A stretch of DNA of 62,415 bases, counting the filler, from Kipferlia bialata (taxonomy: Eukaryota), in NCBI GenBank assembly GCA_003568945.1. It is 5 parts of 5 records of this genome, joined end to end, with 100 filler letters (N's around TTAATTAATTAA, not from the genome) between each part and the next. Parts side by side here need not be neighbours in the genome. Positions count along the whole stretch, not along the records: positions 13,535 to 26,946 come from BDIP01000947.1; positions 27,047 to 40,441 come from BDIP01000949.1; positions 40,542 to 53,935 come from BDIP01000950.1; 2 more parts are not named here. One strand, written 5' to 3'. Shown here piece after piece: positions 15,291-53,911 of this stretch. A program made the translations under genes and the position numbers. Positions within the stretch are counted from its first letter, which is position 1; the number at the start of each line of letters is the position of its first letter. The notes under the pieces were generated by a model that was not told the origin of the DNA, made no database searches, and worked only from the letters and a program-made list of their open reading frames with translations.

Positions 15291-15333
<43 letters not shown>

Positions 15334-17863
15334 TTTCTTTCCCCCCCCCCCCCCCCCCCCCCTCATTCTCTCTCTCACTGTTGCTATTTCTCGTATTTCC
15401 TCTCACTGCCTCTCTGACACACGCCTTATATGTGTCTCCCTCCTATATATGTATGTGTATATGTATGTACATATGTATGTATATATATCCTCGTGCTCAT
15501 CCTCACCTCTAGGGATCAGCTGTCTGATGCCATCCGATCCATGTCTGTCTCATATGGTTACTCACACACACACATATATATATCCATTGTCCATACATAT
15601 TGTATTCTCTTACCCTAGGGATCAGCTGACTGATGCCATCAGGGACAGGACCCTGACACGGGGAGACGGGGTATGTCTATGCACTCCCATATACCTAAAC
15701 TCCATATACTCGTCATTTCGAATGAATAATGGTATGATGAATAATGGTAAGTATCCAACTGTCCGGCAGAGCCCTCCGTCAGAACACACTGTGCGGATAT
15801 CTCAATTTGTGACCTCTCCCATTTATGCATACTATTTGTAGAGTTGCCTTACTTGTCAGGCAGAGCCCTCTGTCAGAACACAGGTCGTGCCACAGCTGCT
15901 TCTCCTAGGTGAGTCTCTCTCTCTCTGTCATTCTCTCTCTCTCTCTCTCTCTCTCGCTAGGCAATGATATCGGCAAATGCTCTTCTCTAATGAGTGCACT
16001 GCGGTGATCAAGCCAGTCTGATAATCAAACTCTCCCCAATGTATTGTTCTCTTGGTGTTCGTACTCTATAGGTACATTTCGGTGGCCCTGGTTTTCTAAT
16101 ATATCCACATTAGTTGTACGTATCTGACTCTCTAGGTGCCTTCCGGTGGTCCACCACTCTCAAGGGTGACCAGTTCACAGTGACAGAGGACCCAACAGTA
16201 GTCACTAAGTCAGTAAGTACGTGTCGTCTTTGTGTCTTATATAGATATAGGTACATATACACTAATACACATATTTTTCACAGTGACAGAGGACCCAGTG
16301 ACAAATGGTGTTAGTGCGTCTATACTTATCTATCTATTGCATACTTGTTCCTCTCTTCCACTCCAGACAACGGCGGGTGGCAGGTTATAGCAGCCGAGGA
16401 GGCCATATGCCCAGCCAACAGGCCATCCTACTTCGAGGTGGGATAGATTAGAGTATATATCAATTACATCTGTAGAGGTCTTATCAGGCGACCCCATATA
16501 CACTTAATATGACTATAATAGTATTTGTTGAATGTATATATATACGAGTGTTTACATCTCTGTATTAACAATAAGGTCACCTTTGATGATCGAGTGAGTG
16601 GTGCCTACATTGGGGTCTGTGCTGAGTCAGGACTGGCAAACATCAACTACCAGACGTAAGGGGTCTCTCTCTCTCCCTACTCGCATATTAACGAGTGCTC
16701 TCTCTCTCTCTCTCTCTCGAAATCTACACCCCCCCCCCTATTACCAGACGTAAGTGCTACCATCCTTTCTATCTCACTCTCTTCTCTTCTGTCTATCACA
16801 CACACACTCTCTCTCTCTGTCTATTCTTATCCATATATCCATCTATATGTGTATGCCTAACTCCAGATACACCTCCTCCCCTGCCTATGTGGACTACTGG
16901 TACTTCAGTGGGGGGAACACATTTGCAATGAGGTAGGGTGGAGATAGTTCTCAGAATGAATATACATTATACCTATGAAGTGCTAGTGTGTCTGCCTCTT
17001 GTGTATATTGCGACATGCATCTATTGCAGTAGATATATCATCACTCTAACCCTAGGAACGGTGGCCAGGCTGTGGAGTCCTGGCAGGCAGGGGACAGGGT
17101 ACGTATATTAATGTATCTATAGATATTACATAGTTCATTCTTGAAATAGATAGTATACTTGCAATATACATCAATTTGAAATGTGCTGGCAGGCAGGGTA
17201 CGGATAGTGTGTTTAGGTTATAGATACAGTATATTGCATCTATACCCTCTCACCCAGGTCGGCATTCTGGTCGACACCCCCAACAACAGAGTCGGGTTCT
17301 GCAGGAATGGAAGGTACCCTATCTCTCTCTCTCTTCTCCTACACCCTTCTTCCACCCATGTGTTGATGCGCTCTCTCTACTACTACTTCTTGTGTCTCCC
17401 CCTCTCACCTCCCACACCTCATGTGGGCCTTTGAGAACACTGAGCTCTCTCACTCTCTCTCTGTCTCTTTCTGTCTATCCCCCCCTTCTATACACTTACA
17501 TAGGTTCCTGATGTGGGCCTTTGAGAACATTGCTGAGAACACTGCCTACAGACCCACAGTGTCATTCAACAGACTCAACACGTTCAGGTATATGCACAGT
17601 AGTAATACATATTTATGTGTCAATACATGTATACACATGCATCAACGAATTCAGCTAAACAGACGTATCCATACATATGGCAGCATTTATTAGTACATAG
17701 TTAGCGTATACATACAACGTTGTATGGATACCTATTACACCAGGTCTCTAGCCGTGGCAGAGTATTTGTATATATATGTAAATTTGTATGTATATATTGG
17801 TATATCCTGTTGTCTTACTCCAGGTCTGTAGCTGTGGCAGAGGACCCATACACGCTAGTGTAG
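15060..17863 (+). CDS. SPRY-domain protein, about 12 small exons (second exon uncertain)
   Basis: Spliced translation MSTLDISATGKGFGG...AFRWSTTLKGDQFTVTED...GGWQVIAAEEAICPANRPSYFE|VTFDDRVSGAYIGVCAE...WQAGDR|VGILVDTPNNRVGFCRNGR|FLMWAFENI..AYRPTVSF...DPYTLV*. YFEV, YIGV, GDRVGILVD, F.RNG and Y.P.VS are SPRY signatures. Confidence 0.85.
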
Positions 17864-18573
17864 GGGTGTATAGACTCTGGTGGAGATTAGTGAGAAGAAC
17901 AGTGTTGTAAGGGGAGACAATCAGAAGAAGAGCTACCATGATAGAGGATATGTAACCACACTAATGAGAGTCAGGCCGTTACTCAATATGTCGCTCACGA
18001 ATATATCGTGTATAATAGAACCTAGCACCTATCTGGGGGTGTTATTGTGGTATGTTTGAACTCATATATATACATCCTCTGGATTAGTAATGTAATCCTT
18101 ATGTCTCGTGACAGCGTGACGTTTTACACTTTATTGACAGCATACTAGATCCACACTATCATGACAATCACAACGAATGTACTCTATTGGACAAATAGTA
18201 TGAAAGAGCTGTTTCTCCTGCCCATTCTATCCATAGGATAGTCAAGAAATATTCTTCCTCAGAATGTTCCTCATCTGGGATACCACTCATGAAGTCAACG
18301 ATAATATACACATGTATGCCAGCCTCTCCGTGTCTCTTTCCATCAATCAAGAGAAACCTCTGGGAAAACATAATTCACTTCTTCGCAAGGGCATGACCTC
18401 TCCCCCTCCTCCCTCCATGAGTCAACGTGTGACTGGTTCTAATGACCATCTCTCCTTAGCCATCAAACGGTCAAGATTCTCTCTCACAGAGCATGCATCC
18501 CAATGTATCCTGATCAGAGAGGCGGCTTGTCCTCTTTGCACACGACTCTTCAGTGACATACGAACAGTCGAAG

Positions 18574-19710
18574 CTAGGGCCCTGATATGTGTGTCTTTGG
18601 GGTGACCGTGACAATGACAGCGCCCTGGAGTGAGATCTCAATATACTACCAATAGGCACTGGTACTAATTCTACTAAACATAGCCATGCAGATACACATA
18701 CAGTAGACAGAGAGATATGGTGACAGTGACAATGACAGTGCCCTGGGGTGAGATGGGACGATATTATATATATAAGCATGAGTGAGGTGTATTCCATACA
18801 GACTCTGTACACATGGGGGGAGATACTCTGTCTATATAGAGATCTATATATATGTATATATATCAGTATATAGCTGTTCCTGCATGGAGTCCTGGGCCCA
18901 CCTCCACTATTGATAGATGTATATGATACTTATGTCTCTGTCTATCAATCCATTCATCCATCCATCCATCTATCCATATCTATACATCTGTCGATACCTG
19001 CATTGAGTCCTGGGCCCACCTCCACTTGAGAGACTCCTGAGGGGTGAGAGGAGGAGTATAGGACTGTTCTGTACATGCGTAGAAATAGAGTTCATGAATC
19101 TACATACCCTAGTCAGGTACCCCATGAGCCATCTCCTAAGCAGGGATGAATGTATGTATATACGTATTCATATGTGAATTAATGAGTACACTTGAGTAAA
19201 CATACCCTCGTCAGGTATCGATCTGTGTATATGGGACATGGATATATATATACATACCCTGGTTAAGTACCCCATCAGCCATCTCCTGAGGGGGGATGTC
19301 TTAGACCTGAGGGGGTGAGAAGAAATCACACACACACATATATATATGAACAAATAGAGTGTTAACACTATATACGTACTTGCTGTGCTTCCCTCTGCCT
19401 GACACCACCTCTAGACATGCACTGCCATCAGGGTGGTCCCTGGACAGGGTGCGCACAAGGGACCTAGCATCAATATAGTATATATCAGTAATATAACAAT
19501 ATCTATATAGTAATATACATATATATATATTATAGTTGTCTCTGGACAGGGTGCGCACAAGGGACCTGACATCAGTATATTGTTAAGTATATAGTATATG
19601 TACTGTATTGTATAATCGGTTTCTCTGGAGAGGGTGCGCACATGATATACACCTGATAGCTGATGTCACCACTGGCTCTGCCTCTGCCACCGTGTATCCA
19701 TGTACTGTCG

Positions 19711-19741
<31 letters not shown>

Positions 19742-20394
19742 CCTCATACCGATATATATGAAAGTGTTATATACCTAATAGCGGCTGTAACTACGGGCTC
19801 TGCCTCTGCCACCGTGTATCCATGCAGGTCCACAGACACAAGGCCAGACTTGGATAGAGCGTCAGACATCCTGAGGGGTGAGGGCGAGTTAACATAATAC
19901 AATGAACAGTCATGACATATGCATAGTCTCATCCAAGAGGTCTGTCAAAATATCCCTACATGATACGTACACACAGACATCTCATACCTAACTCCATATA
20001 TCACACCCTTACCTATACCCCTTTCCAGTCTGACTGGAGAGCTCATATGACTAACTAATTACACATTTACGTTCAGACTATATTGAATATATTCCTCAAT
20101 ACTTCTACACTTGTCTTACCTGTCCCCCTTCCTAGTCTGTCTGGACAGCCCTGCCCTGCCCACAGCCTGGGTGGCACGGCCTAGGCCTGTATTGAGAGGT
20201 ACATTTGCATATGTATATACATATTCATATATATATATAGAGAGAGAGGGTGGCACGGCCCAGGCCTATGTTAGAGGATACTATACATATACTATACAAA
20301 CACTATAATCTATTTGTATATAAATACTGTGCATACATCACTATAGCCCTGCCCACAGCCTGGGTGGCACGGCCCAGGCTTGTAGGAAGAGGTA

Positions 20395-20447
<53 letters not shown>

Positions 20448-23400
20448 GCACGGCCCAGGCCTGGGTGTTAGAGGTATATATATAATATCTACTGAACATG
20501 GGTACCCGAGTGGGTCTCTATACAATAGTGGGTATACATATCCTAATATAATCATATACTCATACATACTCACCTCCTAACGACACCCTCCCGTCTTGAG
20601 CTGTGGCCCATCTCTCCTCGGCAGTCTGTCTGGCAGAGCGGGCTCTGGAGGCTAGGATGAGATAGAGCATCTCTGTAATATTTGTACCATTCCTTAAATA
20701 CTATACAGTATATAGACTGCTGCCTTACCTAGCACCTGTCCCTTCCTCTCAAAGTACTGAGAGGCCTTGGGTGACTCCTCATAGTGCCTGGGGTTAGTAT
20801 GGGGATATTCAACACAAAGTGTATGTATATATAGTCATATACAATTGAGGAAAAGGCATACATATAGATGTAAATGTATGCACTACTCTCTCTATACAAA
20901 CACATACCTGACTAGGTTCATGCACTTGTTGTATGCCTTGGTCAGGGCAAGGGCCTCGGCAAAGATGACACTCCTTGTTATGAGAATGAATATACATGTC
21001 CATATTCAGTTTCTTAGAGACTGATACAATACATATTAATTATGATTAGGACATTAGTCAGAGCAAGGGCCTCAGCAAAGATGACAGACCTGATATATAT
21101 GAGTCATAATTAAATACTATAACATAGTACTATAATACTAGGTACTGTATGACACGAAAAACATACATATGGTACATATATAGTATATGAATGATATCAG
21201 GGCAAGGGCCTAAGGAAAGATGACAGACCTGGTTATAGGGTATAACAATGATAATAATGTGAGAGAGAATAACTATATATGTATATATATATGTACATAT
21301 ATGTACAGGGTCTCGGCAAAGATGACATACACGCACAATGTCAAGGGGGTTCAACTAGAACAATAATTCTGTATTATCTGTCAATCATCAGATTATCCTG
21401 CCTTATCCTGGCAGTTCACTGATCGATACACATAGTGTTTACATGTATGCATACACCATATCTATACTTCTCCTACCTGTCAATCATGAGGTTGTCCTGC
21501 CTAATCCTGGCAGCCAGGTTGGGTGGTAGGGAGCTGGGCAGAGAGGGTAACTCTTGAGAGAGGTACCGAGAGGTACTGCCAATGCCAAACTCTCTCTCCC
21601 TCTCTCTCTCCCTCTGCCTGTCTGCCTTGTTACGCTGGGTCGGGCCATACTCAGGGACAGTCTGATATAAGGATAGTAATATAAGGATGCTTAATGTGTA
21701 CATAACATATATATATGTATGCTGGGTCGGGCCATACTCTGGCACAACAGACTATGGTTAGAGTACTAACATATGAGGTATATATTTATATGAGGAGAGT
21801 AATACATGTGTGTACCTGTATATGTGGTAAGTGTATATATACATATATATATATATGTGTGTGTGTGGGTGTGTTAGTCTGTGTGTGTGGCCATACTCAG
21901 GCACGACGGCCCATGGTCAGAGCAGAAAATACACAGTGTTAGTAGAAAGCAATATGAATAAAATAGAGACGTACTGGTTGGGGCCATACTCTGGCACAAC
22001 GGTCTATAGTTAGAGTGCATATCTAAATATCTTTGTGTATGTATGTATATATATGGGTATAGGTAGATGGGATACATTTTCACTATATATACTATACATA
22101 CCTCAAGGTGGAATGTCTGCCTATATATCCAGAGATCCCTATATATACATGTATACCTATTTATACATAGATCCCAATATATAGTGTACCCACAGAAATA
22201 CGAACTGGGACAAATTAGTCTTCTACATAGAGTACACATACCTCAGGGTGGTGGAATGTCTGCCTCTGCCTGTCTCTCTCCTGTGCCTGTACTAACTCAG
22301 CCTCTCTCTGTCTCTGTGCTTCTCTCTCCCTCTCCATCTCTCTCTCCCGCTCCCACATCTCATTGACCCTTGCAGTGGCTGCCTGACCATCTGAAGGTGA
22401 GGGTATATACATATATTTATATATATATATATGATGATGAGAGACACTTATATTGCTGACCATCTGGGGGTGAGGGCATATGTGCAAAAATATGTCAAGA
22501 CAGAGAGGAAGAATTACAGCAAGAGTATGCATGGAGGCGGTGACATACTAAGCCTGGTGACACTCACCTGCTGCCGTTGCAAATGGATCAACCCCATATC
22601 CAGCCTGATAATGAGACCATAATAGACTCTTGAAGATTGTAGGTTGATGGCGCAATATCACAGAAATATAGTAACAATGAGGGGGTCCCATATACCTGGC
22701 GGATGGCGCTCTTTGAGTTTGCGTACTCCTTCTCTCTCTCTCTCTCCCTTTCCAACTCTCTCTCCCTCTCACGCTGCTGGTAGAACTGTTGGTGAGTGGG
22801 ACTAATTCGTGTTTACACTATAACTATAGTATATATACTTACTCTTTGGGTGAGAGGGACTCATATACCTCGGGGTATTCCTTATATATAGTATATGTAC
22901 ATACCTCCTTTGCCTGCTGTGTCTGCTCCCACTCACTGGGGGCATCCTGAGTGTGAGGTATATGCAAAGATAACAGATATATATATATATATATACACAT
23001 ATATATATACAGATATATAGATATATTCCACACTCACCGGGGGCATCCTTAACATAAGTATACGTAAATATATATACATATATATATGCATACACGGGGG
23101 ACATCCTGGTATGAGGTATAGACAATCACATATGAGTATCTACATACACCCAGAGAGACATTTGTTGATCTTACTTGGTGCATTCAAAAACATACCTCCT
23201 TGAATGTGAATGTCTCCGGCTCTAAGAGATTCACAGAAGGCGGGAGGATGTCATCTGTGAGTGAGGGTAAGACTCCCATGGTGTATATAGAGATATATAT
23301 GTATATACTGCATGAACCTTGACCTTGTGAGGGTAGGACTCACATAGTGTATGACACACATATATACGTAATCGTATAAAATGCATATACCTTCCTCATA

Positions 23401-23984
23401 TGCCTCTCCCTCTGCCAGGCTGAGCATCAGCAGGAAGGACCTGGGGTGGGTGTATACACTTGAGTAAATATATAATATATAATATATATACTATATATAC
23501 ACTACCGTAGCAGGAAGGACCTGGGATGAGCATAATACGTCATATATACATACAGAGAGCATGGGAACAGGTATATATATATGTATATATGACTGAGCAC
23601 CAGCAGGAAGGACCTGGGGTGGGTTCGAATATATATATATAATGAATAGTAATATATGGGACATGAAGGACCAAGGGGTTGGTGCGTATTATGTATATGT
23701 GCAGTATAGGAGCATCCACCTCCCACATATACCTCATCCTCTCTCTCTCTATATATATATGTATCTATATGTATGTACCTAGCCTCCTCCTCTTTCCATA
23801 TGTGGCCATATAGGCACAAATACACATACACACACATATATATATAGATGTGGATGAGTAAACACAATAGTATACATTCACTCATATGCATATATACCTT
23901 GCCTCCTCCTCTGTCTGTGCCGACTGTGCCACATCAAACACAACAGAAGGGTCGATGCTCTGGGATGAGGTACTTAGAATACAT

Positions 23985-24030
<46 letters not shown>

Positions 24031-24123
24031 TTCGTATGATAAACAGCCCAAGACTCGGTACTACGTGGAGATATAGCCAACATACCGTCCGCCATCTCTT
24101 TGTAGCAAGGCAGAGAACAGTGC
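18574..24123 (-). CDS. CUE-like + Smr-domain protein (Cue2/NONU-1/N4BP2-like putative endonuclease); exact start unresolved
   Basis: N-terminal exons (23959-23898, ~23440-23390) give SIDPSVVFDVAQSAQTEEEAR|SFLLMLS (CUE-like). C-terminal exons give VSVDLHGYTVAEA...LEVVSGRGKHS...PLRRWLMGYL...MQ|GAVIVTVTPKTHISGP* (Smr motifs DLHG, xSGRGxHS, G.+.V). Confidence 0.75.
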
Positions 24124-24389
24124 TAGGGTATGAGCACCACAGCAGAGCGTTTCAGAGGTACATGGATACATCGGCGTAGTTTTTCGACGCATTTTCAAAC
24201 TCAGATCACACCATTTCCAAAAAGAACCAAGAACCAAGAAGCATACTAGGCCTAAGTGTTCCTTAATACCACTAGGCCTATACAACCACTTCAAAGACGT
24301 TCAATTCACGATTTACTTCACAAATACAGATTACAACACATCAATCCTATCATACACTAATCATACAATTCCTCTCCCTCTCCCTAGTC

Positions 24390-24422
<33 letters not shown>

Positions 24423-24424
<2 letters not shown>

Positions 24425-26248
24425 ACATTGCCATACACGAGTCGGGCCTCGGTATGCACTTGCACCTCTCATTGATCAGTCTCTCCCTAAGCTCGGCCTC
24501 TCTCGCCTGACTGTAAGCGCTCTCCTAGCTATATAATAATAAAATAATCTACATAAGTGTAGAGAGTTTGACAGAAGGAGAGATATATACTGCCTGTGTT
24601 GCCACAGGCTCCTCTTCCAATGTAAGTGATGTATGTTTGTATATACATACATATACCAATATACATACCTATATAAGTATATAAAAGATACTATATTCTT
24701 AACATGACATATTACCTGTGATGCTGCAAGATCCTCTTCCAGCGTGGCCTTGATCCTCTCCAGCTGAGGGTGAGTATAAACATGAACAGAGACATAGAGA
24801 AAGAGAGAGAGAAAGACAGTGTGCTTGAGACAGAGAGAAGCAGTGGGGGATTGAGCGAGAGTTGTATTGATCCTCTCCAGCTGAGAGTCAGATACCTACA
24901 TATTCATTCATCATACATATGGAGTATATTACTACCCATACCTTCCGTGTCTTGTTCCTCTCCTGTGACAGCAGTTCAGACAGGTTCTCCTGCTCAGCCT
25001 GGGCTATGACCCTGCGAGATAAGAAGGATACTTGATATACTGTGGTATATATGTATACATATATACCGATAGATAGATACATGGAGTTCACTGCGACCCA
25101 TGAAATATAGATTAGACTCTAGTATAACAGGTATATTCAAATAGTACCTTCTAGTGTTCAGCTTCTCATCCAACTCCCCAATACGGAGGGCTCTCTCCTA
25201 CAGTGAGGACAGAGGGAGTGGGAGAGGGAGAGGGAAGGGGAGAGAGAGAGCAAGGGCTGAGTAGTTGCAGCGACATAAAGAGGCTGACCCACCATATGAG
25301 TGCAAATAGAAGCTACACGAGACACACAGAGGGGTTTTGAATGGGATCTGACCTCCAAGTAGTATATCCAATGAAACATTCATCCTGTCTATACACGCTA
25401 CATATACCGTATGCACACCTCCAGGTCCTGAGACTGTATGTACAGGGTCTCACTCAATCTGGGTATATATATCTATATATCATTATATTATACTCTCTCC
25501 CTATATGTATATACATGTATATACCTCTAAGTCCTGAGACTGTATGGACAGGGTCTCAGTCAGTCTGGTGTTGGTGTCAGTCAGTTCACTCAACTCCTCT
25601 CTCAGTTGGCCTGGGATCAATGACAGAGGAGAGGTGGATAGTATAGATAGAGAGAGAGACTCAACGGAGAGGGAAGAGAAGACATTATAACGCACGGAGA
25701 GAGGTGGATAGCAGAACAGAGACAGAGAGTTCTCTCAGATGACCATGGCGATATTAGACATCGATAGAGAGAGAGATAGAGACAGAGAGAGAGAGGGAGA
25801 GAGACTCAACTCCAACAATTGGTCTGAGTCCAGGATGTACATACTCACCTATACCATCTCTCTGCCCTTGTCCATATGTATATATATATATACATTTGCC
25901 ATAATCCCACTATAATACTAACCATGAGAGTACAAAGAGACTATACTCACCCATCTGAGCCATCTCCTCTGCCCGTGTCCACATCTGGGAGCCCTCTCTC
26001 CGCATGCCTCTACCCTAGAGGTTAGAGAGGTATATACTAACACATGCAAATACAGGCGTAGACTGGGGAAACTAGGGTACTGACAAGTCACTGTAATAGT
26101 AACACCCACCACAATACTCACCCTTCTCTCCATAGTCCCTGGTAGTGGGGATGTCGAGAACCGGTTCATCTCTCTCTCTGTCTCTCTCTGTCTCTCTCTC
26201 CCTCTTTTTGTCTCTGTCTCTGACTCCAAGTCTACTCTCTCAATAACC
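24423..26248 (-). CDS. Coiled-coil protein ending in a CaaX motif (CMAM); 5' end unresolved
   Basis: In-phase exons ...QLREELSELTDTNTRLTETLSIQSQDLE|ERALRIGELDEKLNTRR|VIAQAEQENLSELLSQERNKTRK|LERIKATLEEDLAASQ|ESAYSQAREAELRERLINERCKCIPRPDSCMAM*. Confidence 0.65.
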
Positions 26249-26900
26249 TAAGGAGGTCACAGTTGCCTGTACTACTCAGTAACCGGCTAGCAAATGACCC
26301 AGAGTGGTAATAGAAGGACTTTAGCACCTATGGGAGCAGTGGCCAGCGCCACAGGTGCAGGTAGAGAGTGGCTTGACTATCATATGTCAGTAGTACATAC
26401 ATCTTCTTCCCACTGCACCCCTTTGTTTTTGTATCCTGTTTTTGCTCATTTGACAAAAAGGGTTTGCTTTCTCTATACCCAATCCCAATACCTCTCTTCA
26501 CTTCAGCTAGGGGCCTATATGGGTCCTGAGGCTGACTTCGAGCCCGAGTTAGGAGAGCTCTCGGTGTCCACGGAGATGTCGGAGAGTGTGGGGGATGAGA
26601 TAGGTGTGTGGGATGCCCCCAAGGGTGTGTTCTATATATGTATCTGGATACACTGTGACCATATGTTGGATATTGGGGAGTCTATCCATTCATATGTGAT
26701 CCAATTTGTCTCACATATGTATTTGGTTATACATAATGGGTTTGTGGATCCTTGAAGCGTATTTCCGGGGCAATACTGTTTCAGTGTAGCCTTCGCAGAT
26801 TCATATGATACCGTGCTCTCTCGCCACTATATATTTGGAGAGCTTAACATTTTTCTTATAACTTCCTCGTGATCACTTGGCCTTCTATGCCCTCTCTCTC

Positions 26901-26946
<46 letters not shown>

Positions 26947-27046
26947 NNNNNNNNNNNNNNNNNNNNNNNNNNNNNNNNNNNNNNNNNNNNTTAATTAATT
27001 AANNNNNNNNNNNNNNNNNNNNNNNNNNNNNNNNNNNNNNNNNNNN
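26947..27046. other. Artificial contig-joining linker
   Basis: 44 N + TTAATTAATTAA + 44 N. Confidence 0.97.
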
Positions 27047-27167
27047 AAAAAAGACTAAAGCAGCAACCCCCCCCCCCCCCCCCCCCCAATCATAGTACAG
27101 GGTTGGTTCCTATGTACGCTGCTTTCGATAGACATGACATCTAGATATGGTGTATGCCTCACTTCAG

Positions 27168-37098: not shown

Positions 37099-37129
<31 letters not shown>

Positions 37130-37441: not shown

Positions 37442-37447
37442 CACGGA

Positions 37448-40541: not shown

Positions 40542-40562
40542 CCGCTACACCCTTAACACCAG

Positions 40563-40695
40563 GTGGAGGGTTGCTCTCTCTGAGTCTGATGTCGAGGAGT
40601 GGTTCCATTCCTATGGGGACAGAGATGGACTCGAGTACAGGTATAGTTCATATATACTATATATACTGTGTGTACTATATTATATATATACACAA

Positions 40696-40727
<32 letters not shown>

Positions 40728-40860
40728 GGAGAGTTGTTCCACTCCTATGGAGACAAGGACGGGATGGAGTACAGGTAGAGTATATGGATACACTATGTGC
40801 TCTGTCATTCATACTCTGATGTATCTTGAACGTAAGGGTCTTCTGCCCTGGATGGGTTGT

Positions 40861-40903
<43 letters not shown>

Positions 40904-43900
40904 CCGTAGGGACTTCTGCCTCCTGCTTGACAACGATGTCCCTGCCTGTGACACACGCATATATATATCACACTATATATATATCCTATATATACATACA
41001 GTACATTCGTCTTATGCCTCAGGGACTTCTGCCTTCTGCTAGACAACGATGTCCCGGCCTGTGACACCAGACCAGCAGTGGAGAGGGTTCTAGGTATATA
41101 TAGATACATGTATGTATATATTCTTGTTTCATGTCCAACTCCCCTCACCCCCGGAGGCCTCTCTCCAGTACGTCTCTCTCTCTCTCTCTCCCCCCCCCTC
41201 TCTCTCTCACTCTGTGTATCTCTGTAGTTATGTATATATATATACTTACACTCCCCTCACCCCCAGAGGCCTCTGTCCAGGACCCAGTAGACCACTTGAG
41301 ACAGGTATGGATACTGAGGTCTATATATACTTCAATGTATATAGAGAGAGAGAGGGAGAGAGACATGGAGATACATGACCCAGAAGACCACTTGAGACAG
41401 GTATGGATGTGTATGCACACTGTGATGTATAGAAATTCCATTGACTCTTTGAGTTAAGTAGTGTATACGTGTCATACACCAGATCCTACTTCCGAGGGTC
41501 TGGTGTGATGGCATCAATATACATATACATATGTATATCCATACTATAGTGTATTAACCTCAGGTCCTGCTGCAGAGGGTCAGGCGGGATGGCATCACTC
41601 TGCAGAGCCTGTGGGACTCAATTGACCAGGTATATATATCTCCCTCTCTCTCTTTATTTATTTTTTTATATATTTTTATTGTTTTTAGTATAGCCATCTT
41701 TGATGTGAACAAGTATTATATACCCCCCCCCCCCTGACCCCCAGGCCAAGTCCAATGTCCTGTACCCACACGACATGAGGTATGGGGTCTGTATACATTT
41801 ATTTGTGTGTGTATATACATTATTCTTTTGAGTATGAAAGTCCTACCCCCCCCCCTCCCACCACCAACACCGCCACTACGCCTCATTTACGTACCTATCT
41901 GACTCACTGACTAACCCTCTAGAACTGGTGTTGAGTCCCTTGTGGGCAGGGTGCTGTCAGGCAGACAGTGGGAGACAGTGGCTAGACACCTAGAGAGGTA
42001 GATAATATATATTAATATGAATATATATTTATATATATATACTTATCTGTATATATATATATATATATGTCTGGCAGACAGTGGGAGACAGTGGCTAGAC
42101 ACTTGGAGAGGTATTGTTCCTAGTCATATTGTTGTATCTCTCTCAACACCCTGATTTACTGCAACTTAGGCCTGCGCGAGATGGATTACTGTCAGGATGG
42201 CACTCATATACATATATATCCATATATATATATATATACATGTATATGTGTGTGTACTCACACCGAGGATGGACGGTGCCAGGTGGGTCACCCTGTCCAA
42301 GATGACAGATATATACAACATCATATATATGTATATATCTAGTACTATACACATATTCTCTCTCTCTCTCTACACCCTTATATCAGGATGGACGGTGCCA
42401 GATGGGTCACCCTGTCCAAGATGACAGACTACCTAGAAGGGAAGGGAGAGGCCACGGAGCAGACACCCAGGTACAGTGATATGGTAGTATATACTATATA
42501 TATACTGTATTATAGTAGGTATACCTCCTGGAGGGGTAAGGGGAGGCCACAGAGCAGACACCCAGGTATGGTGCATAGAGTATACATCGTGACATCTGTG
42601 TTTATTATTCAGGTAGCTTAGTTGACAAGCATGTTACTACATTGATCCATTTTTGCTTATGTTCAGGCTACCCAGAGAGGAGCGTCGCCGCAGACAGCCT
42701 GCATCCCCGACAGTAACTAGGTGTGTATATATACATGTGTATATTTCTGTATGTGTATTTGTATGCTATAAGCTACATACGCGGACGTAGCATGCATCGC
42801 TTACAACCACGTATTCTACTGGTATTGTGGTCAGGTATACTTACCTCCCAGACACACTGAGGAGGAGAGAGAGAGAGAGGCAGACACGGACACCATCCCG
42901 CCCTCCCCCTCCAAGATGGCCCCGCCCTCCCCTCCCATGCCTGTGTCCCTGGTGGCAGAAGTACACGATAAGCCTAGGTACGCGAGATAACATATATAAC
43001 TCACACAACAGACTGCAATATATATTATCGTATCCTTTACCCCATAGGACCCCTCATCCCCACCCCTCACACACACATATATAAATGTATGCCTATGTAT
43101 GCCTATATATTCTATATATACCTAACCCTCAGGACCCGTCCCTCCACTGCCACTGTCAGACTCTCTGCCAAAGTGCATATATTGTATTATACATCACGGC
43201 ATACGCATATTATCTCGTTCAGTTTGGTAACTTACCTCAGGACCCGCCCCTCAACTGTCTGCCACTGTCAGACTGCCAGATGTATATACTCTATACCATG
43301 ATGTACTGTATTTTCTAGTATAGTATGTAATATAGTATAACCATCAGGACCCGCCCCTCCACTGCCACTGTGAGACTGCCAGATGTATACACTCTATGTC
43401 ATTGTATACCATATCTATACTGAGTATTATATACTGTATATACTCTATAGACATGCCTAACCCTCAGGACCCGCCCCTCCACTGCCACTGTCAGACTGCC
43501 AGAATGTATATTACAAATACCACACTGTACTGTAATATACTAGGCCGAGTAGTATAATATAGTATAACCCTCAGGACCCGCCCCTCCACTGCCACTGTCA
43601 GACTGCCAGATGTATACACTATATGCCAGAGTGTACCATATCTATACTCTATTGTATATACTAGGCCGAGTAGTATAGCAGGGTTTAACCTCAGGACCCG
43701 CCCCTCCACTGCCACTGTCAGACTGCCAGATGTGGCAAACAGCCCATACCCAGGTATAAAAGCAGAGGCTAACCATACTACTTGTATGGTATGTAATGAT
43801 ATGAATATAGTATTATTTTAATAGTATAATTGATCTGGGGTGGAGGGGGAGTATGGACTGCCAGATGTGGCAAATAGCCCAGATTTGTTTAGAAAGACTA

Positions 43901-46900
43901 TCCATACAGTGTACATGTGAATTGATAATAGTTAACTTCATGGTGTATATAAACTGCCGGATGTGGCAAACAGCCCATACCCTTGGTGTATGCAGATAAC
44001 AACTTGTGACATACCTATAGTGTATCAGATCCTTACCTCTAGGCTCCATCAGCACTGTCTCCCTGTCCGGTGCCCCAGTGGGTCTGGCCAGCCATGATGC
44101 TAGGTATACTAGCATAATATATTTATATATACGTATGCTTACGACGCTAGGTGTACAGACGTGTATAATATTTGATAACAGTGTATACATATCTATAATA
44201 CATAGTGCGAGTATCTTGGTCTCACCCCCAGGTCCCTGGCCACTCTGAGGAACCTCATATCGGAGAAGATATACAGGTACGGGGTATATTAGTACTGTGT
44301 GTCTATATCACACTGAAATTCCCCTCCAACGTAGCGTAGAGACCTTTAACTGTTGTTTGGCACCGATGACGTTCTTTCCCCTCACATACCGACTTCTTAC
44401 TCGTTCTCTCTCTTTCTCTCTTTCTCTATCTCTCCTACCGCTTTTGCGCCATAGACACAACTCTATCTCCCAATGCGCAAATACATATATATGTATAAAT
44501 TTAGTATGTGTATATATACACTTACCCTCTAGGCACCACCGCCACCTCCGGTCCTTCTTCCTCCATGCCGACATGTCTAGGAGTGGGGGCATATCCACAC
44601 AGGAGTTCAGGTACATATATACAGAGAGAGTACATCTACATATATTAATTATATATATACATTATATACGTGTATAGTTTCCACATGCCGACATGTCCAG
44701 GAGTGGGGGCATATCCACACAGGAGTTCAGGTATACATATGTATATAAGTATATATCACATTGCAGTATATTGTTTAGTATATGAAGTAATACTGCATCT
44801 TACCCCCCAGGCTAGCCCTGGACAGGATGAACATTTATAGTATATATGTATATATATAGTATATATGAGTATATAGTATGCACACATTGTATTATTATTA
44901 TACTATGTGTATCTTACCCCCCAGGCTAGCCCTGGACAGGATGAACATTGCCATATCGGAGGAGGTATGGGGATACTGTCATTGTAGTATTGAAACTTGT
45001 TATCATTGAATATATGGATAGAATCTATCCGATAGATATACACGTACATGAAGCATTGAAATTCCCTTAATCCTTAGGATATCAACCAGCTTGTGTCCCA
45101 CTACACCCTGCTTGACCCCGATGGAGTTATATATACGGATATAATTATATATATATGCATATATATTGTAGTCTATCCTTATAACAGGATATCAACCAGC
45201 TCGTGTCCCACTACACCCTGCTTGACACCGATGGAGAGATATCATACGGCACCCTGAGGGACTTTGTCGGGAACACAGCAGGTGATTTAGAGATCGTGCT
45301 CTAGAGGGATAGTGTTTCGCGTTGTGTATACTCTTTGCTAACTCGCAGGGAGTCTTCCTAGGGCAGAGCGCAAGAGGACAGAGCCCAAGAGAGAGACCGA
45401 GACTGAGGGCGAGAGACCTCCATCTGGTGCTAGGTATATATATATATATAGTGTATATATAGTGTCTCTCTTTCGTTCTTCTCCCATACTTACACATACA
45501 GTAGCACTTTGAAAGTACTAATAGTACTGTACCTACATCTTATACTAGACATGGCAACCGCCCCCTCTCCGGTGCCGGTATGCATGACCTCACTAGGGGT
45601 GGGAGGATATACAGCATCAGGAGTCCACCTCCTAGGTATGTATCAGTATGTGTATTCATATATATATATTGATATTGATATTCTAATGTGTGTGTCTCTC
45701 TCTTCTATGTTGCGATACACATTACTGTACAGCATCAGGAGCCCGCCACCTAGGTATTGATCTTCCCCTCTCTCTCTCTCTCTCAGCAGTTAGTTCTCTC
45801 ATTGTGTGGATGCATATGTATATCTCAGTCTATTTGTCCAAACCCTAGTCATAATCATATATACCTCCTCTATTGTGTAAGAAATGATTATTTCTCAGTC
45901 TCTATGTCCTGACTCCTAGGCTGCGTGGCGATGAGCGCCCCAAGAGTGTCATAGACGGCGTCATCACAGGTATGGATATATATATAGATATATGTGTATA
46001 TATATATGTACACATATATGTATGAGTGTCATAGACGGTGTCATCACAGGTACATAACTATATATATATATATATATATATGTTACTGTTACTCAGTCTA
46101 CTGGTGTACGGGGTCTTCACAGGCATGGATGTTAATATTTCTATGTATATATATATATATGTGTGTGTGAGTGAGTGTTTACACATAGATATTGATGTAT
46201 AAGTATGTATTAGTATATATCTATTTATGTCAGTAGACGGGGTCTTTTTCTTGGAGATGACGTTGGAATATATGAGTGTCCCTAGTGTATATCCTTTAAC
46301 ATCCTAATCCCAGGCACCGGCAAGGGAGAGAGAGAGGGAGAGGTGGAGAAGGGCAAGAAGCAGATGGGAAACAGGGCAGCAGGTACTCAATTCCTACACG
46401 ACTACTATATTCCCACATGATGACCTCTTGTGCTATCTATGTTTCTTACGCGATTCACCCTTTAGGTGACTGGGCCTCCCCCAAGGGCCCCAGGAGGCGT
46501 ACCTTCGAGGAGAGTGTCCACACGCAGAAGGCGCCAACTAGGTATAGTCAAAGTATCATATGAGCGCAATAGCATGGTACTCAGTAGTACAGGGCATCTA
46601 ACCCTCAGAGCTGTCAGACAGCTGGCCTCCCACCTGAGGCAGAGGGTCCAGGGTGGCAACAAGAGTGTCTCCCAGGCATTTGCCAAGCTCGTGGACTTCA
46701 ACAGAGACGGAAGGGTCACATTCGACGAGATTAGGTATATGGTCTCTTCTTTTCTTGTCCTTCCTTGACCTTCCTTGATCCGTATTTGACTGTTTCTGAC
46801 CCATAGGTGGCTTGTGCTGCACCACTTCCACATCGACTCCATCAGCAGAGAGACCCTGGACGAGCTCTGTGAGGTAATAGTAATAGTGTAAATATTGAAG

Positions 46901-47206
46901 ATAATTGTATTATTATTGGCCAAGTATGTGAGATTGAAACATTGTTTCTGTACTACTTTATGTGGGGATACATTGTGCATTCTTCCTCTTGATAATAGTA
47001 TTGCCCTTCAGTACCTAGACACCAATGGCTCTGGAGGTGTATCCTTCATTGTGTGTATGTGTGTATGTGGATGTGTGGATGTGTGGATATTCCTACATTA
47101 GTTCTTCCTACTTGCTACCTTAAAATTCTAACTTCAGTACCTCGACACCGATGGCTCTGGGGATGTGTCCTTCATGGAGTTTGTCCACTTCATCGAGGCA
47201 CAGTAG
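40563..47206 (+). CDS. Multi-EF-hand calcium-binding protein, 5'-partial, many micro-exons
   Basis: Exons encode LRSFFLHADMSRSGGISTQEFR|LALDRMNIAISEE|DINQLVSHY..DTDGEISY, AFAKLVDFNRDGRVTFDEIR|WLV...LDELCE|YLDTDGSGDVSFMEFVHFIEAQ* (TAG 47204-47206). Confidence 0.85.
43128..43982 (+). repeat. Exon-echo tandem array: six copies of acceptor + exon start, plus two downstream copies of the exon end
   Basis: CAG|GACCCGYCCCTCMACTG...CCACTGTSAGACT at exon-start positions 43133, 43241, 43348, 43468, 43575, 43695; only 43695-43753 is complete, with donor GTATAA. Confidence 0.9.
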
Positions 47207-47611
47207 GTCCTATACGGCCCATTTCGTTTGACTGTGAGGCCGTAGGGGGCAGCGACTCTTTGAGGAAGGATCCTTAACGACCCTGAATACTGTCCCTGCT
47301 TTTGAAGTGTAAAACATAGTTGGTAGAGTCAGTGAATGGTAATGGATGCTGAACTGTGTGTATTTGTGTATATGTATATGTGTGTGTACTGTATATGATG
47401 TTGTGTCGCGTTGTCATTGGTCGATCACGTAGAGACAATAGATCAAGAAGATAACTACAACGTTGGTCTATTAACATTAAGAGAACAGGAAGAATATTAA
47501 TGTGTTCCATATGTACGGATAATTCAAGTTGGATGGAAGAAGAGCAGTTTTGGAGAATTCATCAGAGACTCGACACCAGAAAGCATTGCATCTAGATGAT
47601 AGAAACTGGTA

Positions 47612-49185
47612 TTAAACCCGGTCAGCTTCATCAAGCTCGGCATCCACAGCTGCAGGCTCAGAAGCAAGAGTGTTGTGTCTCTGGCTCTCTACATCCACCT
47701 CCTCCCCCTCTCCCTCCCCCTCTCCCTCTGCCTCCGTGTCTTCCACCTGCTCAGTGCTGGTCCTGACCATGTGGGACATGTACCACAGACACAGGGCTGG
47801 GGTTAGGGTATTATATAGATAGANNNNNNNNNNNNNNNNNNNNNNNNNNNNNNNNNNNNNNNNNNNNNNNNNNNNNNNNNNNNNNNNNNNGAGAGAGAGA
47901 GAGAGAGAGATAGGTATGTGGGACATGTACCACAGACACAGGGCTAAGGTTAGGGTTATATATAGATATATATATATATATATTGAGAGAGAGAGAGAGA
48001 GAGAGAGAGTTAGTTATGTGGGACATGTACCACAGACACAGGGCTGGATAAGAAGGATACATCAATGAACACTTCACATTGTAATATATATGGAATATAG
48101 ATACACTATATACAGTATCATGAATTCATACCTAGCCCTGCCAGCCCCGATGTCAGGTCAGCAAAGAAGAAGGCCTGCCACACACCGTCAACACCTGGGA
48201 TGAGCAATATATCATCATTGACATGCTATTGTTTATTGCCTAACCCATGAACAACAGGCCGAATGAAATACACAGTCACGAAATTATTGGAATCAAATGT
48301 TATAACACACATACAGGTGTAACACAATTGTTGTATATATCGTCAAGTCTTACCCACGAACACAGGGAGGATGAGTATCATTCAATCATAAGCAGTATTA
48401 GACTCTTAATACGTATTGAGTATATATCACGTCTCACTTACCCATGAACACAGGCAGGATGAGTATCATTGCAATGATGAGGGCTGGTCTGAACAGAGCC
48501 AGAGTGACATTGACCCACACGTGGTGGTAGACCTGGGGATGGGTATATATATACTCTGGTACTATCACGAAGAACCTTAATACATATGTATATACATAGT
48601 ACCACCCGTACCTGTGTGATGACGTTTGCTATCTGCACACTGGACTGCAGCCATGCGGCACCTAGCATGTACCGGGTCATGGTGGCAGCCACTGCTACAA
48701 CCTAGAGTTAGGATAGGGGTATATGCATTGTCTTAGAAATACTTCTATTCATATATGTGTGATTGTAGAAGTATATCTAAAGAGAGAGAGAGGCACATAC
48801 GCTACCTCAGGATCCTCCGAGAACCTCCATACTGCTATGGGATATATAATTATTAATAAATATCTTACTACAAATTCTCAGTACATATATACTCACCTCT
48901 GGGTCCTCTGAGAACAGCCCTGCCAGGTGCTCTTGGATATATATATATATACATACATTTATATACCATATATATACCACATATATATAAGTATACCTCC
49001 GGGTCCTCTGAGAAGAGTCCTGCCAGGTGTTCAGGGAATAGGACAGCCAGGATAGAGACACACAGGGTGAAGGCATGGGCTGCGAGGAGACCTAAGTATG
49101 AGAACGAGAGAGAGAGAGAGAGAGAGAGAGACACACACACACACACAGGGTGAAGGCATGGGCTGCGACGAGACCTGGGTATAAG

Positions 49186-49219
<34 letters not shown>

Positions 49220-49432
49220 GAAGGTATGAACAGCAAGGAGATGGAAGTTACTAGACATACTGAGAGAGAGGGAAACAACGCATGGAGAGAAATACGGTGA
49301 TGGCTGCATGGGTGGCAAGGAGACCTATGTATTTGAAGGGAGATATACATATATGAATGTATAATATATACCTAGTCCGTAGCGTGTCACATCATGTCTC
49401 ATCCGTGGATATCTAGTACAGTTCTTAAGTAA

Positions 49433-49469
<37 letters not shown>

Positions 49470-51732
49470 ATATATACACACCTAGTGTCGTTGCGTGTCT
49501 CATCCTGTGTCCCTTCCTCTGGCCATGGTTGAACCCTAGCACAGGGCCCATGCCCTGATGATAAGATAATGGTGTATGTATACATGCACATATATATATA
49601 TACTAGGATATCGAGAACAGTATAGAGTATATATAGTATAGAGATATATATGTATTCCACATCAGTGTGTTGAACCCAAGCACAGGGCCCATGCCCTAGG
49701 GATAAGATAATGGTGTATGTATACATGCACATATATATCATATGTTATAGAGATATATATGTATTCCATCAGTGTGTTGAACCCTAGCACAGGGCCCATG
49801 CCCTGGAGGGGTGAGTAATTAGTATATATATACACACACATATATATATGTGTGTCTGTGTAAGTATGAGTCTGTGTGTAAGGTATAGTACTATACATAA
49901 ACATGGTTGAACCCTAGCACAGGGCCCATGCCCTGATAATGAGTATATACACATGCATGTCGAAAGATATATAGATATACAGATACAAACACTGATATAC
50001 TCTAGAGAACCCAAATAATGCAAATATCACTCTGAATACACATATCCAATACCTGTGCTATACCGACCATGGGCATGAAGAGTATTGCTCTATAGGTGTA
50101 GGTAGGTACCTATATACATATACACATATACATATATATATATACATGTACTATCCATACCTGTGCTATACCGACCATGGGCATGAAGAGCATCGAGGCA
50201 AACCTGAATGTGAGATAGAAAGGGGGGAGAGATACCCATACATAACACATCCAAATGTGTACTCATGTAATAATAGAGAGACAGTTGTATACACATACTT
50301 AGCAGCCGAATATTGTCTACATATTGCTACATACAACATATACATAAAGCCTATCTAGCCGCCAGTCCATTAGCTGCAACCAGGATGTCATAAACATTTG
50401 GGGGTTTATACGCTTTCAATAATGCTATACTATACTATAGATGTATATGTAATAGAGCTATTCACCTAGCTGCCAGTCCATTGGCTGCCACCAGGATGTC
50501 TCCCAGTCTAAAGATATGTCACAATAATATATTCTNNNNNNNNNNNNNNNNNNNNNNNNNNNNNNNNNNNNNNNNNNNNNNNNNNNNNNNNNNNNNNNNN
50601 NNNNNNNNNNNNNNNNNNNNNNNNNNNNNNNNNNNAAGTCTGGGCTGATGCTGGATGATGTGATATAGATATCATGCATGTATATATATTTGGATTATAC
50701 ATATTAATACTAAATATACATCCACGTATCATTCCCTTAAAGTCTGGGCTGATGCTGGATGATGTGATATAGATACCATGTATATATATTAGGATTATAC
50801 ATATAAATACTAAATGTACCTCCTCTAACCATGCCCTTGAAGTCTGGGCTGATGCTGGATGTGGTCTTTGGTCTGAGGTAGAACCACAGGATGAAGGCGC
50901 CAACCAGGTACTGGGGTTGGATGGATAGAATACATATTGCAGTACAAGTAAACTTAGTGTACTGTAGAGTATTCCGGTAGAATTAACAAGAGAAATACAG
51001 TCAGTAATATGGGCAAACTATGCTCATTTACATGTGACAGAGATGTTGACACCGCTGCCCCACTCATACCAAGGTCCAGGGCACCCTTGTGCTCATGAAG
51101 AGAGGGTATATACACAATACTATTCTCATATATACATATATATATACATACATTCATACCTGAGAAAGGGAGGTAGATACTGCTGCCCCACTCATACCGA
51201 GGTCAAGGGTACCCATGAAGAGAGGGTATATAGTATATATATATATATATATACTATACCTGAGAGAGGGATGTAGATACTGCTGCCCCACTCATACCGA
51301 GGTCTAGGGCACCCATGAAGATAGGGTCACCAATCACATTTAGGATGGCAGCAGTGGCCTAGGGATAAGAGGGAGAGAGAAGGAATAGTGTAATGCAAGA
51401 GTAGCGTTCACAATATATAGCGTCCTACCTGTGCCAGCATAGCAATGGTGCCAACATATACCTTTACATATATGTATATATACAAATGTATATACAATAC
51501 AGTCCTGTGTATAGATGAGTATCCTACTAGTATGACACTCACCTGTGCCAGCATAGCAATGGTGGCCCTGTTCTCAACCCTGGGGGTCAGGGGGGGGGAC
51601 ACATATATGAATATGTATATAACCATTCACACCATATGTACATAGAAAGCAAAAGGATCTCAATACAAACATACCTCAGCAGTGGAAGCGTGCCCATGAT
51701 CAGGAAGTACCCGATGGTATAGAGTATATGAT

Positions 51733-51775
<43 letters not shown>

Positions 51776-52242
51776 ATAAGTATATATTAATATATACCCA
51801 TACCTAAGAAGGGGTAGAGTGCCCATGATCAGGAAGTACCCGATGGGGCTGAACAGAAAGATGACCCTGCTGTAGACAAGAGCAGTGGGCAGTACTAGGG
51901 TTAGAGTGAATATATGTATATATACATATATATATATGGAGAGAGAGGTGACCCTGCTGTACACTAGTGCAGTGGGGAGTACTGGGGTTAGACATACATA
52001 TACGTATGTATATATATAGAGAGAGAGAAACGAGAGAAGGGGAAGAGAGAGCGAGAGATGACCCTGCTGTAGACAAGGGCAGTGGGTAGTACTACGGGGT
52101 TAGACACTTGAATATTAATTAATATATGGAGAGAGAGAGAGAGAGTGAGAGCGAGAGAGAGAGACGTGTGACCCTTACCTTCCTCTGAGCACCCTAGTAC
52201 ATTGAGCAGTATCCACTCCATCTATATATAATACAATATCTA

Positions 52243-52275
<33 letters not shown>

Positions 52276-53911
52276 TAATATGCATATACCTTCCTCCGAG
52301 CACCCTAGCACATTGAATCCATGTATATATACTACCATACCTATCTATATCTATATGTGTATATATATATATATACCTACACATACAATTATACCATATA
52401 TATATACCTTCCTCTGAGCACCCTAGTACATTGAGCAGTATCCACTCCATGTTGGGGAGTAGCACCAGGGAGACAAGCACACCCAGAGACACACCAAGGC
52501 TGGGTATGAGATGATAAGAACATAGACGAAGAAGAACTGATTTACATGAAAACTATACTGAATGTAACAATTGTAGTAATACTACACGCACAGCATGAAG
52601 TGGCCCATCAGGAGCCTGGCCTCCTGGATCTTGTTCTGGGGGTGAATAAAGGGTGTAGAGAGAGAGAGAGAGAATACAATAGCAACTTGTCGAGTGGGAC
52701 TGATATCTTTACCTATGGCATCAATGGAACAAAGAGTGGATATACCTAAATAGTATCTGTGTATACATGTGTGTGTGTATGTACATACCTTGCCCAGCAG
52801 GACTGATATGAGAGCACCCGTGCTGACACCCTCCATGAAGGCAAGGGCTGGGGGTAAGTATATATACATATATATATACGTATATATAGAGAGAGAGAAG
52901 TCATGTGTATATATAAATACGTGCATGTATATATATAGATTAATATCCATGTGCTGACACCCTCCATGAAGGCAAGGGCTGAGGTCAGTATATATGTATG
53001 TATAGAATAGAGAGAGAAAACATATGTGAATATATAACATGTGTGAATATCCATGTGCTGACACCCTCCATGAAGGCAAGGGCTGGATGAGACGTTATTT
53101 ATACTAAACTATGTAGAGATGAGGTCTACACAATATATGCATAAACAAAATGATAACTATGTATATCTCCATAAAGGGCTGAGGCGAGGTGATAATTAGG
53201 TACAGATAAAATACAAAGCATCCATCAATTAATACAAGAAACAATCCATCTACACACAATCCATACCTAGTGGGAGCAGCATCTCCAGGGGTGATATGAG
53301 GGATATGGAGGTGAGACCGTCATCGCCAATGAACCTAGGGTTAGAATAGAAAATTGGAGTGAATTGATACTATAATTACTGTATTACCAACACCTTCTGA
53401 TGAAGTAGAAAGGAAGAGAGAGAGGATGGGGGAGAGAGACTCACCTTCCGATGAAGTAGGAGTCTGTCAGATACATCAGTAGATACAGGAATGTATAGGT
53501 ATACTATCAAGTCACAGAGTAATAATATGATACATAGTAGGATATACATACTTTTAGAGAGAGAGAGAGAAATACTTACTTTCCGATGAAGTAGGAGTCT
53601 GCCAGGTTGTAGAAGGCCTGGAGTTAGAGGGGGGTGGGGGTGGGGGGAGATAATATAATATACATATTCATATATAATACAAACATTGACACTCAGAGAG
53701 ACTGGTGCGTATATATAGGTGTGTGTGCCATGTTGTAGAAGGCCTAGGGTTAGAAGAAGAGGTAGGGGGGGGGATACTATACAGTCTGGTGATCACTGGA
53801 CAATACATATGTACTCACATTGACACTCATTGACACAGCTGTGGGTAGGCACAGCCACAGGAGAAGGGATCCCATTGGGGCAGTGCCCAGTCTGGCAGTG
53901 GCAGCAGTGAC
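47612..53911 (-). CDS. MATE-family multidrug efflux transporter (MepA/NorM-like), 5'-partial, highly intron-rich
   Basis: RLGTAPMGSLLLWLCLPTAVSMSVN|AFYNLADSYFIG|FIGDDGLTSISLISPL...EGVSTGALISVLLGK...AILNVIGDPIFMGALDLGMSGAAVST...GMGPVLGFNHGQRK...GVDGVWQAFFFADL...; acidic tail, stop TAA at 47612. Confidence 0.9.
47824..47890. other. Internal scaffold gap inside an exon-echo array
   Basis: 67 N without the linker 12-mer. Confidence 0.9.
50536..50635. other. Internal scaffold gap next to an exon-echo array
   Basis: 100 N without the linker 12-mer. Confidence 0.9.

Follow-up and report, generated by a model that had tools for sequence, protein, structure and literature searches.

Copies of exon ends inside the neighbouring introns have been described in amphioxus as 'mirages': at single loci of these animals (Adh3, the globins BflGb6 and BflGb9, troponin C and PGBD5), tandem head-to-tail units of 10–160 bp run across an exon–intron boundary, 5' or 3', many copies keep their AG or GT without disturbing splicing, whole units are 81–100% identical, and unequal or intra-strand crossover has been proposed as their origin (consulted parts of PMC3087553 and PMC3902484). 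Likewise, a 37-bp variable number tandem repeat (VNTR) at the exon–intron border of human F7 intron 7 makes functional but silent pseudo-donors, the first donor being used (PMC1557585, in excerpt). Small intragenic duplications with splice signals also figure in the Rogers model of intron gain and in internal gene duplication (passages of PMC3087553 and bioRxiv 10.1101/051292), and aborted homology-directed repair with polymerase theta joining yields head-to-tail duplications by overshooting synthesis and end joining (sections of PMC8654963 and PMC8951532). In the window analysed here, 62,415 nucleotides of Kipferlia bialata (five parts of five records of assembly GCA_003568945.1, joined by 100-N fillers), many introns contain short partial copies of the adjacent exon, often with its splice site, which we term echoes. 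Their architecture is that of the amphioxus mirages; new are the density, the lineage and an allele-like divergence. Unlike the single-locus mirages, the echoes of this metamonad occupy 42 of the 68 introns of five genes, and their differences from the exon follow the codon frame beyond the ceiling for one lineage, a test that the consulted parts of the mirage reports do not contain. We lean towards the view that the echoes derive from other alleles of the same exon, themselves working, and that misaligned exchange or repair involving diverged homologous chromosomes left these fragments behind. For a free-living relative of Giardia, from a lineage whose parasitic members lost nearly all introns, this would be a testable mechanism of intron lengthening.

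Gene structures were curated by hand into 13 models of 12 genes with 147 introns (a poor two-exon model at 54900–55358 was dropped); a self-trained gene finder served as a draft only and over-called exons, echoes being turned into false mini-exons by a naive finder of this kind. Basic introns have a median length of 79 nt, donors are of the AG-GT type, and a CTNAC-like branch point lies 4–6 nt ahead of the AG in 136 of 146 introns; median intron length is 190–315 nt in the five echo-bearing genes versus 72–137 nt in the others. As originally predicted, each exon's reading frame is open only through one complete copy, and the EF-hand model matches the public annotation KIPB_004439 at each of its 543 residues. 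Each exon was aligned locally with both flanking introns, echoes being accepted at a score of at least 26, which 0.3% of 9646 foreign exon–intron pairs reach. The MATE intron with the 100-N gap and the copies at 50355–50507 and 50636–50765, as well as copies at 13825–14124, stand outside all counts, and an intron with a 67-N gap was kept out of splice-site training and spacer tests.

By this procedure, 77 echoes of 14–68 nt (median 29) and 92% identity were found, of which 75 sit in the 42 introns mentioned and two among 79 other introns (SPRY 6, Smr 20, CaaX 4, EF-hand 20, MATE 25, amino-acid-transporter-like 2); six other models with 69 introns have none at this score. An exon end has one copy (42 ends), two (9), three (4) or five (1), and the nearest copy lies 77–173 nt off (median 111), which agrees well with the predicted 1–5 copies of 15–50 nt at 80–130 nt. 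The five genes had been placed on separate contigs; they lie on two (13535–26946 and 40542–53935), and contig 27047–40441, within the region for which echoes had been claimed, has no echo at a score of at least 26. A search with 12-mers detected polar copies in 4 of 79 introns outside the five genes (null 1/4225), so that the duplication process touches other genes too, at a low rate. Polarity is complete, as predicted: the 43 upstream echoes are without exception 5' halves and the 34 downstream ones 3' halves, the 5' edge of the exon being reached by 42 of 43 and the 3' edge within 4 nt by 29 of 34, and wrong-polarity 12-mers occur in 0 of 147 introns. Because duplication across one junction with survival of the complete exon must yield such polarity, it is a matter of geometry and selection and no separate surprise. 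No echo spans both exon edges (0/77); decayed whole-exon duplicates or mutually exclusive exons, the relics of which would not be polar, are rejected, as is in-frame half-exon swapping. Spacers have medians of 74–77 nt and are seldom shorter than 45 nt; they are the TA-rich filler of the original prediction, with an interior GC content of 0.28 as compared to 0.37–0.42 in other introns. Echoes and spacers together account for 8000 of 16742 intron nucleotides in the five genes and for 64% of the total intron length beyond 79 nt per intron; junction-spanning duplication as an engine of intron growth is thus borne out in the window, its form as plain short tandem duplication with decay is not.

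This second point follows from the codon positions at which echo and exon differ. Positions 1, 2 and 3 have 42, 26 and 120 differences, and 95 of 454 four-fold sites (21%) differ versus 60 of 1573 zero-fold sites (4%), a zero-fold/four-fold ratio of 0.18 (bootstrap over 47 exons 0.12–0.26). Silent changes number 111 of 179, versus 47–57 under base- or trinucleotide-matched neutrality, and their share exceeds the ceiling of 0.42–0.48 for a fully constrained exon (p 3e-8 and 1e-4). The codon-position effect is lost in shifted frames and kept in alignment interiors; Smr, EF-hand and the first MATE part show it strongly, the second MATE part moderately. Simulated with the same detection rule, neutral echoes have a ratio of 0.47–0.60, whereas two working alleles with a short neutral phase give 0.14–0.17; the bound near 0.5 arises because a single chromosome lineage has at most one working copy of the two at a time. 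Echoes compared with each other yield 51/237 four-fold and 29/665 zero-fold differences (ratio 0.20), or 23/91 and 13/260 with one pair per family. Some silent excess would be expected with the exon alone under selection, but the codon bias of the differences goes further than that, and the decoy signals are valid yet mostly unlike the real ones in sequence; short tandem duplication with decay does not fit, and both copies seem to have evolved as working junctions. Gene conversion from the exon of the same chromosome, which had been suggested to explain the conservation of the echoes, cannot give codon-framed differences either, by argument rather than simulation.

The flanks of the echoes are far more diverged than the exon part. 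Anchored alignment detects flank homology in 24 of 77 echoes, the median flank score matching a simulated 35–40% substitution plus indels; a stricter spacer test finds homology in 6 of 57, which is understated, as higher-order units and echoes without AG or GT are ignored. The expectation that echoes are better conserved than their surroundings thus holds, and the order of divergence, intron flank (about 35–40%), four-fold (21%) and zero-fold sites (4%), is, together with intact splice signals, the pattern of two working copies. In amphioxus, the whole mirage unit is ~81–100% identical, and copy number can differ between haplotypes or cells (PMC3087553 and PMC3902484, in the parts seen). Eight Kipferlia arrays are ordinary tandem repeats with a period of 85–227 nt and a match of 72–89%. 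Such arrays, and the junction that the units of one array have in common, favour the classical mirage explanation: slippage or sister-chromatid tandem duplication on one chromosome with neutral decay, AT-rich spacers that mutate exceptionally fast and a working exon whose silent sites change unusually quickly; SPRY and CaaX, with little or no silent excess, and the non-nested private changes, which are not significantly silent, are also in its favour. We regard this explanation as unlikely: the ratio cannot fall much under 0.5, as compared to the 0.18 observed and the 0.20 between echoes, and the zero-fold divergence of only 4% caps the age of the echoes such that flanks decaying from the time of duplication would differ by no more than about 8%, instead of the ~35–40% found alongside valid signals. 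Two extra accelerations would be required.

The echo-bearing genes and the individual echoes on which the following paragraphs draw are:

15060–17862, plus strand: SPRY-like gene (presumed label), 11 modelled exons, six echoes in 6 of 10 introns, e.g. 15513–15534 and 17744–17762.
18575–23959, minus strand: Smr-domain gene modelled with 17 exons and 16 introns, 9 of which hold 20 echoes.
21054–21327, minus strand: three 5'-half echoes of exon 20908–20973.
24423–26014, minus strand: coiled-coil-like gene ending CMAM (CaaX), four echoes in 4 of 5 introns, without silent-site excess.
40563–47206, plus strand: EF-hand gene KIPB_004439 with 23 exons and 22 introns, 11 of which hold 20 echoes that are skipped in annotation and RNA contig.
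40731–40774, plus strand: 3'-half echo with GT, LFHSYGDKDGMEY in the echo versus WFHSYGDRDGLEY in the exon, 6 of 9 differences silent.
40910–40954, plus strand: 5'-half echo that includes branch point and AG; all 3 differences from the exon are silent.
43133–43613, plus strand: five-unit array of 5'-half echoes upstream of exon 43695–43753, the spacers being mosaics of each other.
43695–43753, plus strand: complete exon of 59 nt, the only full copy and the one present in the RNA contig.
44684–44835, plus strand: 3' echo (46/47 identical) and 5' echo (25/25) around a core of 80 nt in which GT, branch point and AG are all intact.
47600–53911, minus strand: MATE-like transporter gene (presumed label), two model parts around the gap 50536–50635, 25 echoes in 12 of 15 introns.
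49669–49932, minus strand: three 5' echoes of exon 49482–49554.
51942–52091, minus strand: two 5' echoes that differ from each other and from the exon in their silent codons at two shared sites, so that each site has three states.
52179–52221, minus strand: 3' echo, 43/43 identical to the exon, followed by a valid donor without detectable likeness to the real donor.
56996–57035, plus strand: 3' echo (39/40) of an amino-acid-transporter-like gene, beyond the region of the original prediction.

The gene labels stand to differing degrees: EF-hand is confirmed by searches, Smr is a weak assignment (Pfam E 0.13), CaaX derives from the C-terminal CMAM of the model, and SPRY, CUE and MATE, which we presume from motifs, had no match in single-exon Pfam scans. 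In the Smr gene (20908–21240), the used acceptor is an unusual AAG that opens a serine AGT, whereas two upstream echoes have CAG and serine TCT and are more consensus-like in appearance. Within a modelled CaaX intron (25610–25850), a GA-rich segment has short repeats of its own and a plausible plus-strand peptide, and the model may miss an exon there. More MATE echoes lie around the 100-N gap (50355–50861), across which the frame does not join; a true exon may lie inside the gap. Upstream of the SPRY-like model, 13825–14124 holds an exon-like piece with a 5' echo and 3' echoes (period 85).

RNA covers 40542–44790, the EF-hand stretch, the models of the other four genes being built on reading frames; the run in question (X2) is not on record as RNA and its nature is guessed, but its contig is plainly spliced. 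This 1757-nt contig aligns to the stretch in eight listed pieces with no other letters, the gaps between pieces are five single complete exons (38, 35, 54, 59 and 45 nt), and its loose end goes on with the complete copy of the next exon. All 15 echoes of the stretch are skipped, as predicted for the decoys, even though 13 keep AG or GT and five have a splice signal scoring at least as high as the real site; routine inclusion of echoes as coding exons, the opposite outcome, is not what this contig records. In this stretch and by this one contig, normal splicing is undisturbed by the echoes; low-level mis-splicing may still occur, since assembled contigs, here and in the DNA run X1, drop variants and rare products. 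Intron gain according to Rogers, in which the duplicate splits the exon, is rejected, as frames close through one complete exon and the RNA agrees; unlike in that model (PMC3087553 and bioRxiv 10.1101/051292, as far as consulted), no new intron arises in the modelled cases, existing introns lengthen and the exon stays whole.

The same data speak to the idea that the echoes are under present selection, either as coding parts of minor isoforms or because they recombine into the exon often enough to purge damaging changes. Such selection would explain the coding-type divergence and the retained splice signals, yet it appears improbable: the RNA contig has the letters of the complete copy and skips the echoes, splicing via the nearest decoy would shift the frame or introduce a stop in 39 of 46 cases, the frequency of GT at echo ends (14/41) is that of the background (0.36), two echoes have stops, and the echo alignments contain 17 gaps. 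Recombination fast enough to purge would, it can be argued, erase silent differences too unless diversity were very high.

Regarding the reality of the echoes, contigs of X1, a separate k-mer assembly, bridge at least 9 of the 15 echo–spacer junctions among the matches listed, at a depth of 231–441 and with 0 differences, and one piece crosses four echoes over 1104 nt; the window may itself derive from sample X1, but the junction words are present at full depth. It is therefore very improbable that the assembly placed the two alleles of a heterozygous strain one behind the other. Silent-biased exon differences and diverged introns do resemble alleles, and according to the parts of the genome paper that were available, the assembly, with 124,912 introns, was made from short reads with SPAdes and k-mer peaks suggest diploidy (PMC5874029); a two-allele graph, however, has no path for a join of half an exon to mid-intron, and arrays of 3–5 copies with three-state sites need more than two haplotypes. 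A literature search, with subscription papers and bioRxiv supplements outside its range, returned no report of intron echoes in Kipferlia or of a codon-position test on mirages, and the consulted text of the genome paper has nothing on copies inside introns ('duplicat', 'heterozyg', 'allel' and 'microsatellite' occur 0 times; PMC5874029).

How the spliceosome passes over the decoys is a question in its own right. Decoy dinucleotides are intact in 60 of 77 cases (AG 34/43, GT 26/34), and decoys score only slightly below real sites (acceptors 12.8 versus 15.1, donors 8.7 versus 9.9; background -3.6 and -0.7); position by position, they are barely closer to their own real site than unrelated introns are. 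In the array 43133–43613, three of the skipped decoy acceptors score above the real one. Splicing uses the site closest to the complete exon, i.e. the first donor and the last acceptor; site strength is not what decides the choice. Recursive splicing, which had been suggested, finds no ratchet-point excess and is rejected: GT follows 7 of 34 intact decoy acceptors, the same rate as for real acceptors (30/147), and branch point and AG precede only 1 of 26 decoy donors. A strict exon-length ruler fails as well; would-be exons are all at least 119 nt long, yet lengths above 120 nt occur in 25 of 134 real internal exons, of which three adjoin long introns. Recognition likely proceeds by cross-exon pairing or by AT-island marking, both of which fit the 45-nt floor of the spacers. 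AT-island marking is known from plants; in canonical exon definition, SR proteins bridge U1-70K and U2AF35 across the exon, both of which, like SF1, belong to the exon-definition partners. In a search of K. bialata, SR proteins, U1A, U1C and U2AF65 were found and U1-70K, U2AF35 and SF1 were not, the proteome being fragmented and the absence soft (PMC6679479, in the part consulted). The 5'–3' scanning invoked for F7, a single locus with identical donors on the donor side only, would by itself not explain last-acceptor use in Kipferlia (PMC1557585, in excerpt). Where introns have echoes on both sides, the inner core keeps both signals in 8 of 12, so that nested splicing is possible.

Capture of allelic exon ends could proceed in the following manner: A first event would join one homologue, up to mid-exon, to the intron of the other homologue ~110 nt back, either by overshooting homology-directed repair closed by microhomology joining or by unequal crossover. 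Later out-of-register crossovers within the common exon half would demote the working exon end and its splice site to an echo, and could also add or remove array units; the common junction and the mosaic spacers of the EF-hand array are as such crossover turnover predicts. Events would survive if they span a single junction and the AT-rich spacer that they leave measures about 45 nt or more, since with such a spacer the spliceosome probably continues to choose the site beside the complete exon, whether by cross-exon pairing or AT-island marking; reciprocal deletions would presumably be purged. On this view, the echoes would document past alleles and would themselves be without function. Tandem duplications by polymerase theta tend to be larger than the Kipferlia echoes. 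They were studied in animal repair mutants, and their template need not be a diverged homologue (PMC8654963 and PMC8951532, sections consulted). K. bialata lacks Ku70 and has PolQ, Rad52 and Spo11 (PMC8516963, as far as seen), which fits, without proving it, homology-directed repair closed by microhomology joining.

Several observations weigh against this allele reading. It presupposes a very diverse population, with a silent diversity of ~0.15–0.2 that is not seen directly: no second allele was seen, and X1 and X2 contain no other letters over 4249 nt at 93% likeness, contigs dropping variants. The codon signal is weak in SPRY (four-fold 3/22, zero-fold 5/85) and absent in CaaX (1/16 versus 6/69), and the second MATE part has 15/86 four-fold versus 19/283 zero-fold differences. 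Once the most different echo per family is dropped, the strictly non-nested private changes are 7 silent and 11 replacement, which is not significant; the three private differences of the array 43133–43613 are all silent. Replacement changes are not significantly conservative (BLOSUM p 0.20). Microhomology at the junctions is a postulated feature, and junctions are not enriched beside dinucleotide runs (30/73 versus 29.2 expected); microsatellite-anchored junctions are rejected. Finally, allele capture by itself gives no reason for the AT content of the spacers to exceed that of ordinary introns, as it does; selection or biased filler is needed on top of it. A scan of metagenome contigs for a close relative that could calibrate intron against silent divergence gave 177 pattern matches, 0 of them confirmed.

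Alternatively, the same capture mechanism could have drawn on diverged paralogues or on subgenomes of an old hybrid or polyploid, since lost. Such donors, too, would yield more divergence in introns than at silent sites and more at silent than at replacement sites, and they fit with no second allele being seen at present and with the echoes being concentrated on two of the five contigs. We nonetheless give this variant a low probability: four-fold divergence is about the same between echoes (0.215) as between echo and exon (0.209), which together with the three-state sites calls for at least three donors, and divergence is heterogeneous among echoes (p 0.02).

Should alleles indeed be the donors, population diversity would become readable from one genome, and mirages would gain a mechanism; the same allele capture may underlie mirages in highly polymorphic marine animals. 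We propose more tentatively, and with somewhat more doubt than conviction, a wider scheme: introns grow by capturing the exon ends of other alleles at a silent diversity near 0.2, the spliceosome, reduced and seemingly devoid of U1-70K, U2AF35 and SF1, reads the AT-rich spacers and thereby disregards nearby decoys of equal or greater strength, and one genome is a fossil sample of the coding and intron alleles of its population. The echo process may be widespread, as the mean intron of the genome is roughly 186 nt by our own arithmetic from Table 1 of the genome paper (PMC5874029, partially consulted), as compared to the basic 79 nt in the window. As a natural series of equal-strength decoy sites facing a reduced spliceosome, the echoes could separate exon definition from composition-based intron marking.

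Elsewhere in the window, a dynein heavy chain gene (1–12926) has 12 introns of 60–88 nt, a final exon of 7195 nt, a GC3 of 0.80 and 0 echoes, and one gene at 27168–31222 contains two diverged SET-domain units of similar exon layout, an old internal duplication without echoes. The model of the adenylate/guanylate cyclase gene agrees with the annotation KIPB_004438 in 1141 residues and departs from it at two exon boundaries (34126–34140 and 34818–34875). At the left end of the second contig (13543–13760), seven copies of GT(A/G)GAT(G/A)AA, mostly ~31 nt apart and found nowhere else in the window, are possibly a degenerate minisatellite or a transposon end. Long runs of C or G occur at 15291–15360, 23985–24029, 26902–26946, 37073–37128 and 62366–62411, several of them at contig ends or in branch-point regions, and their length is likely unreliable.

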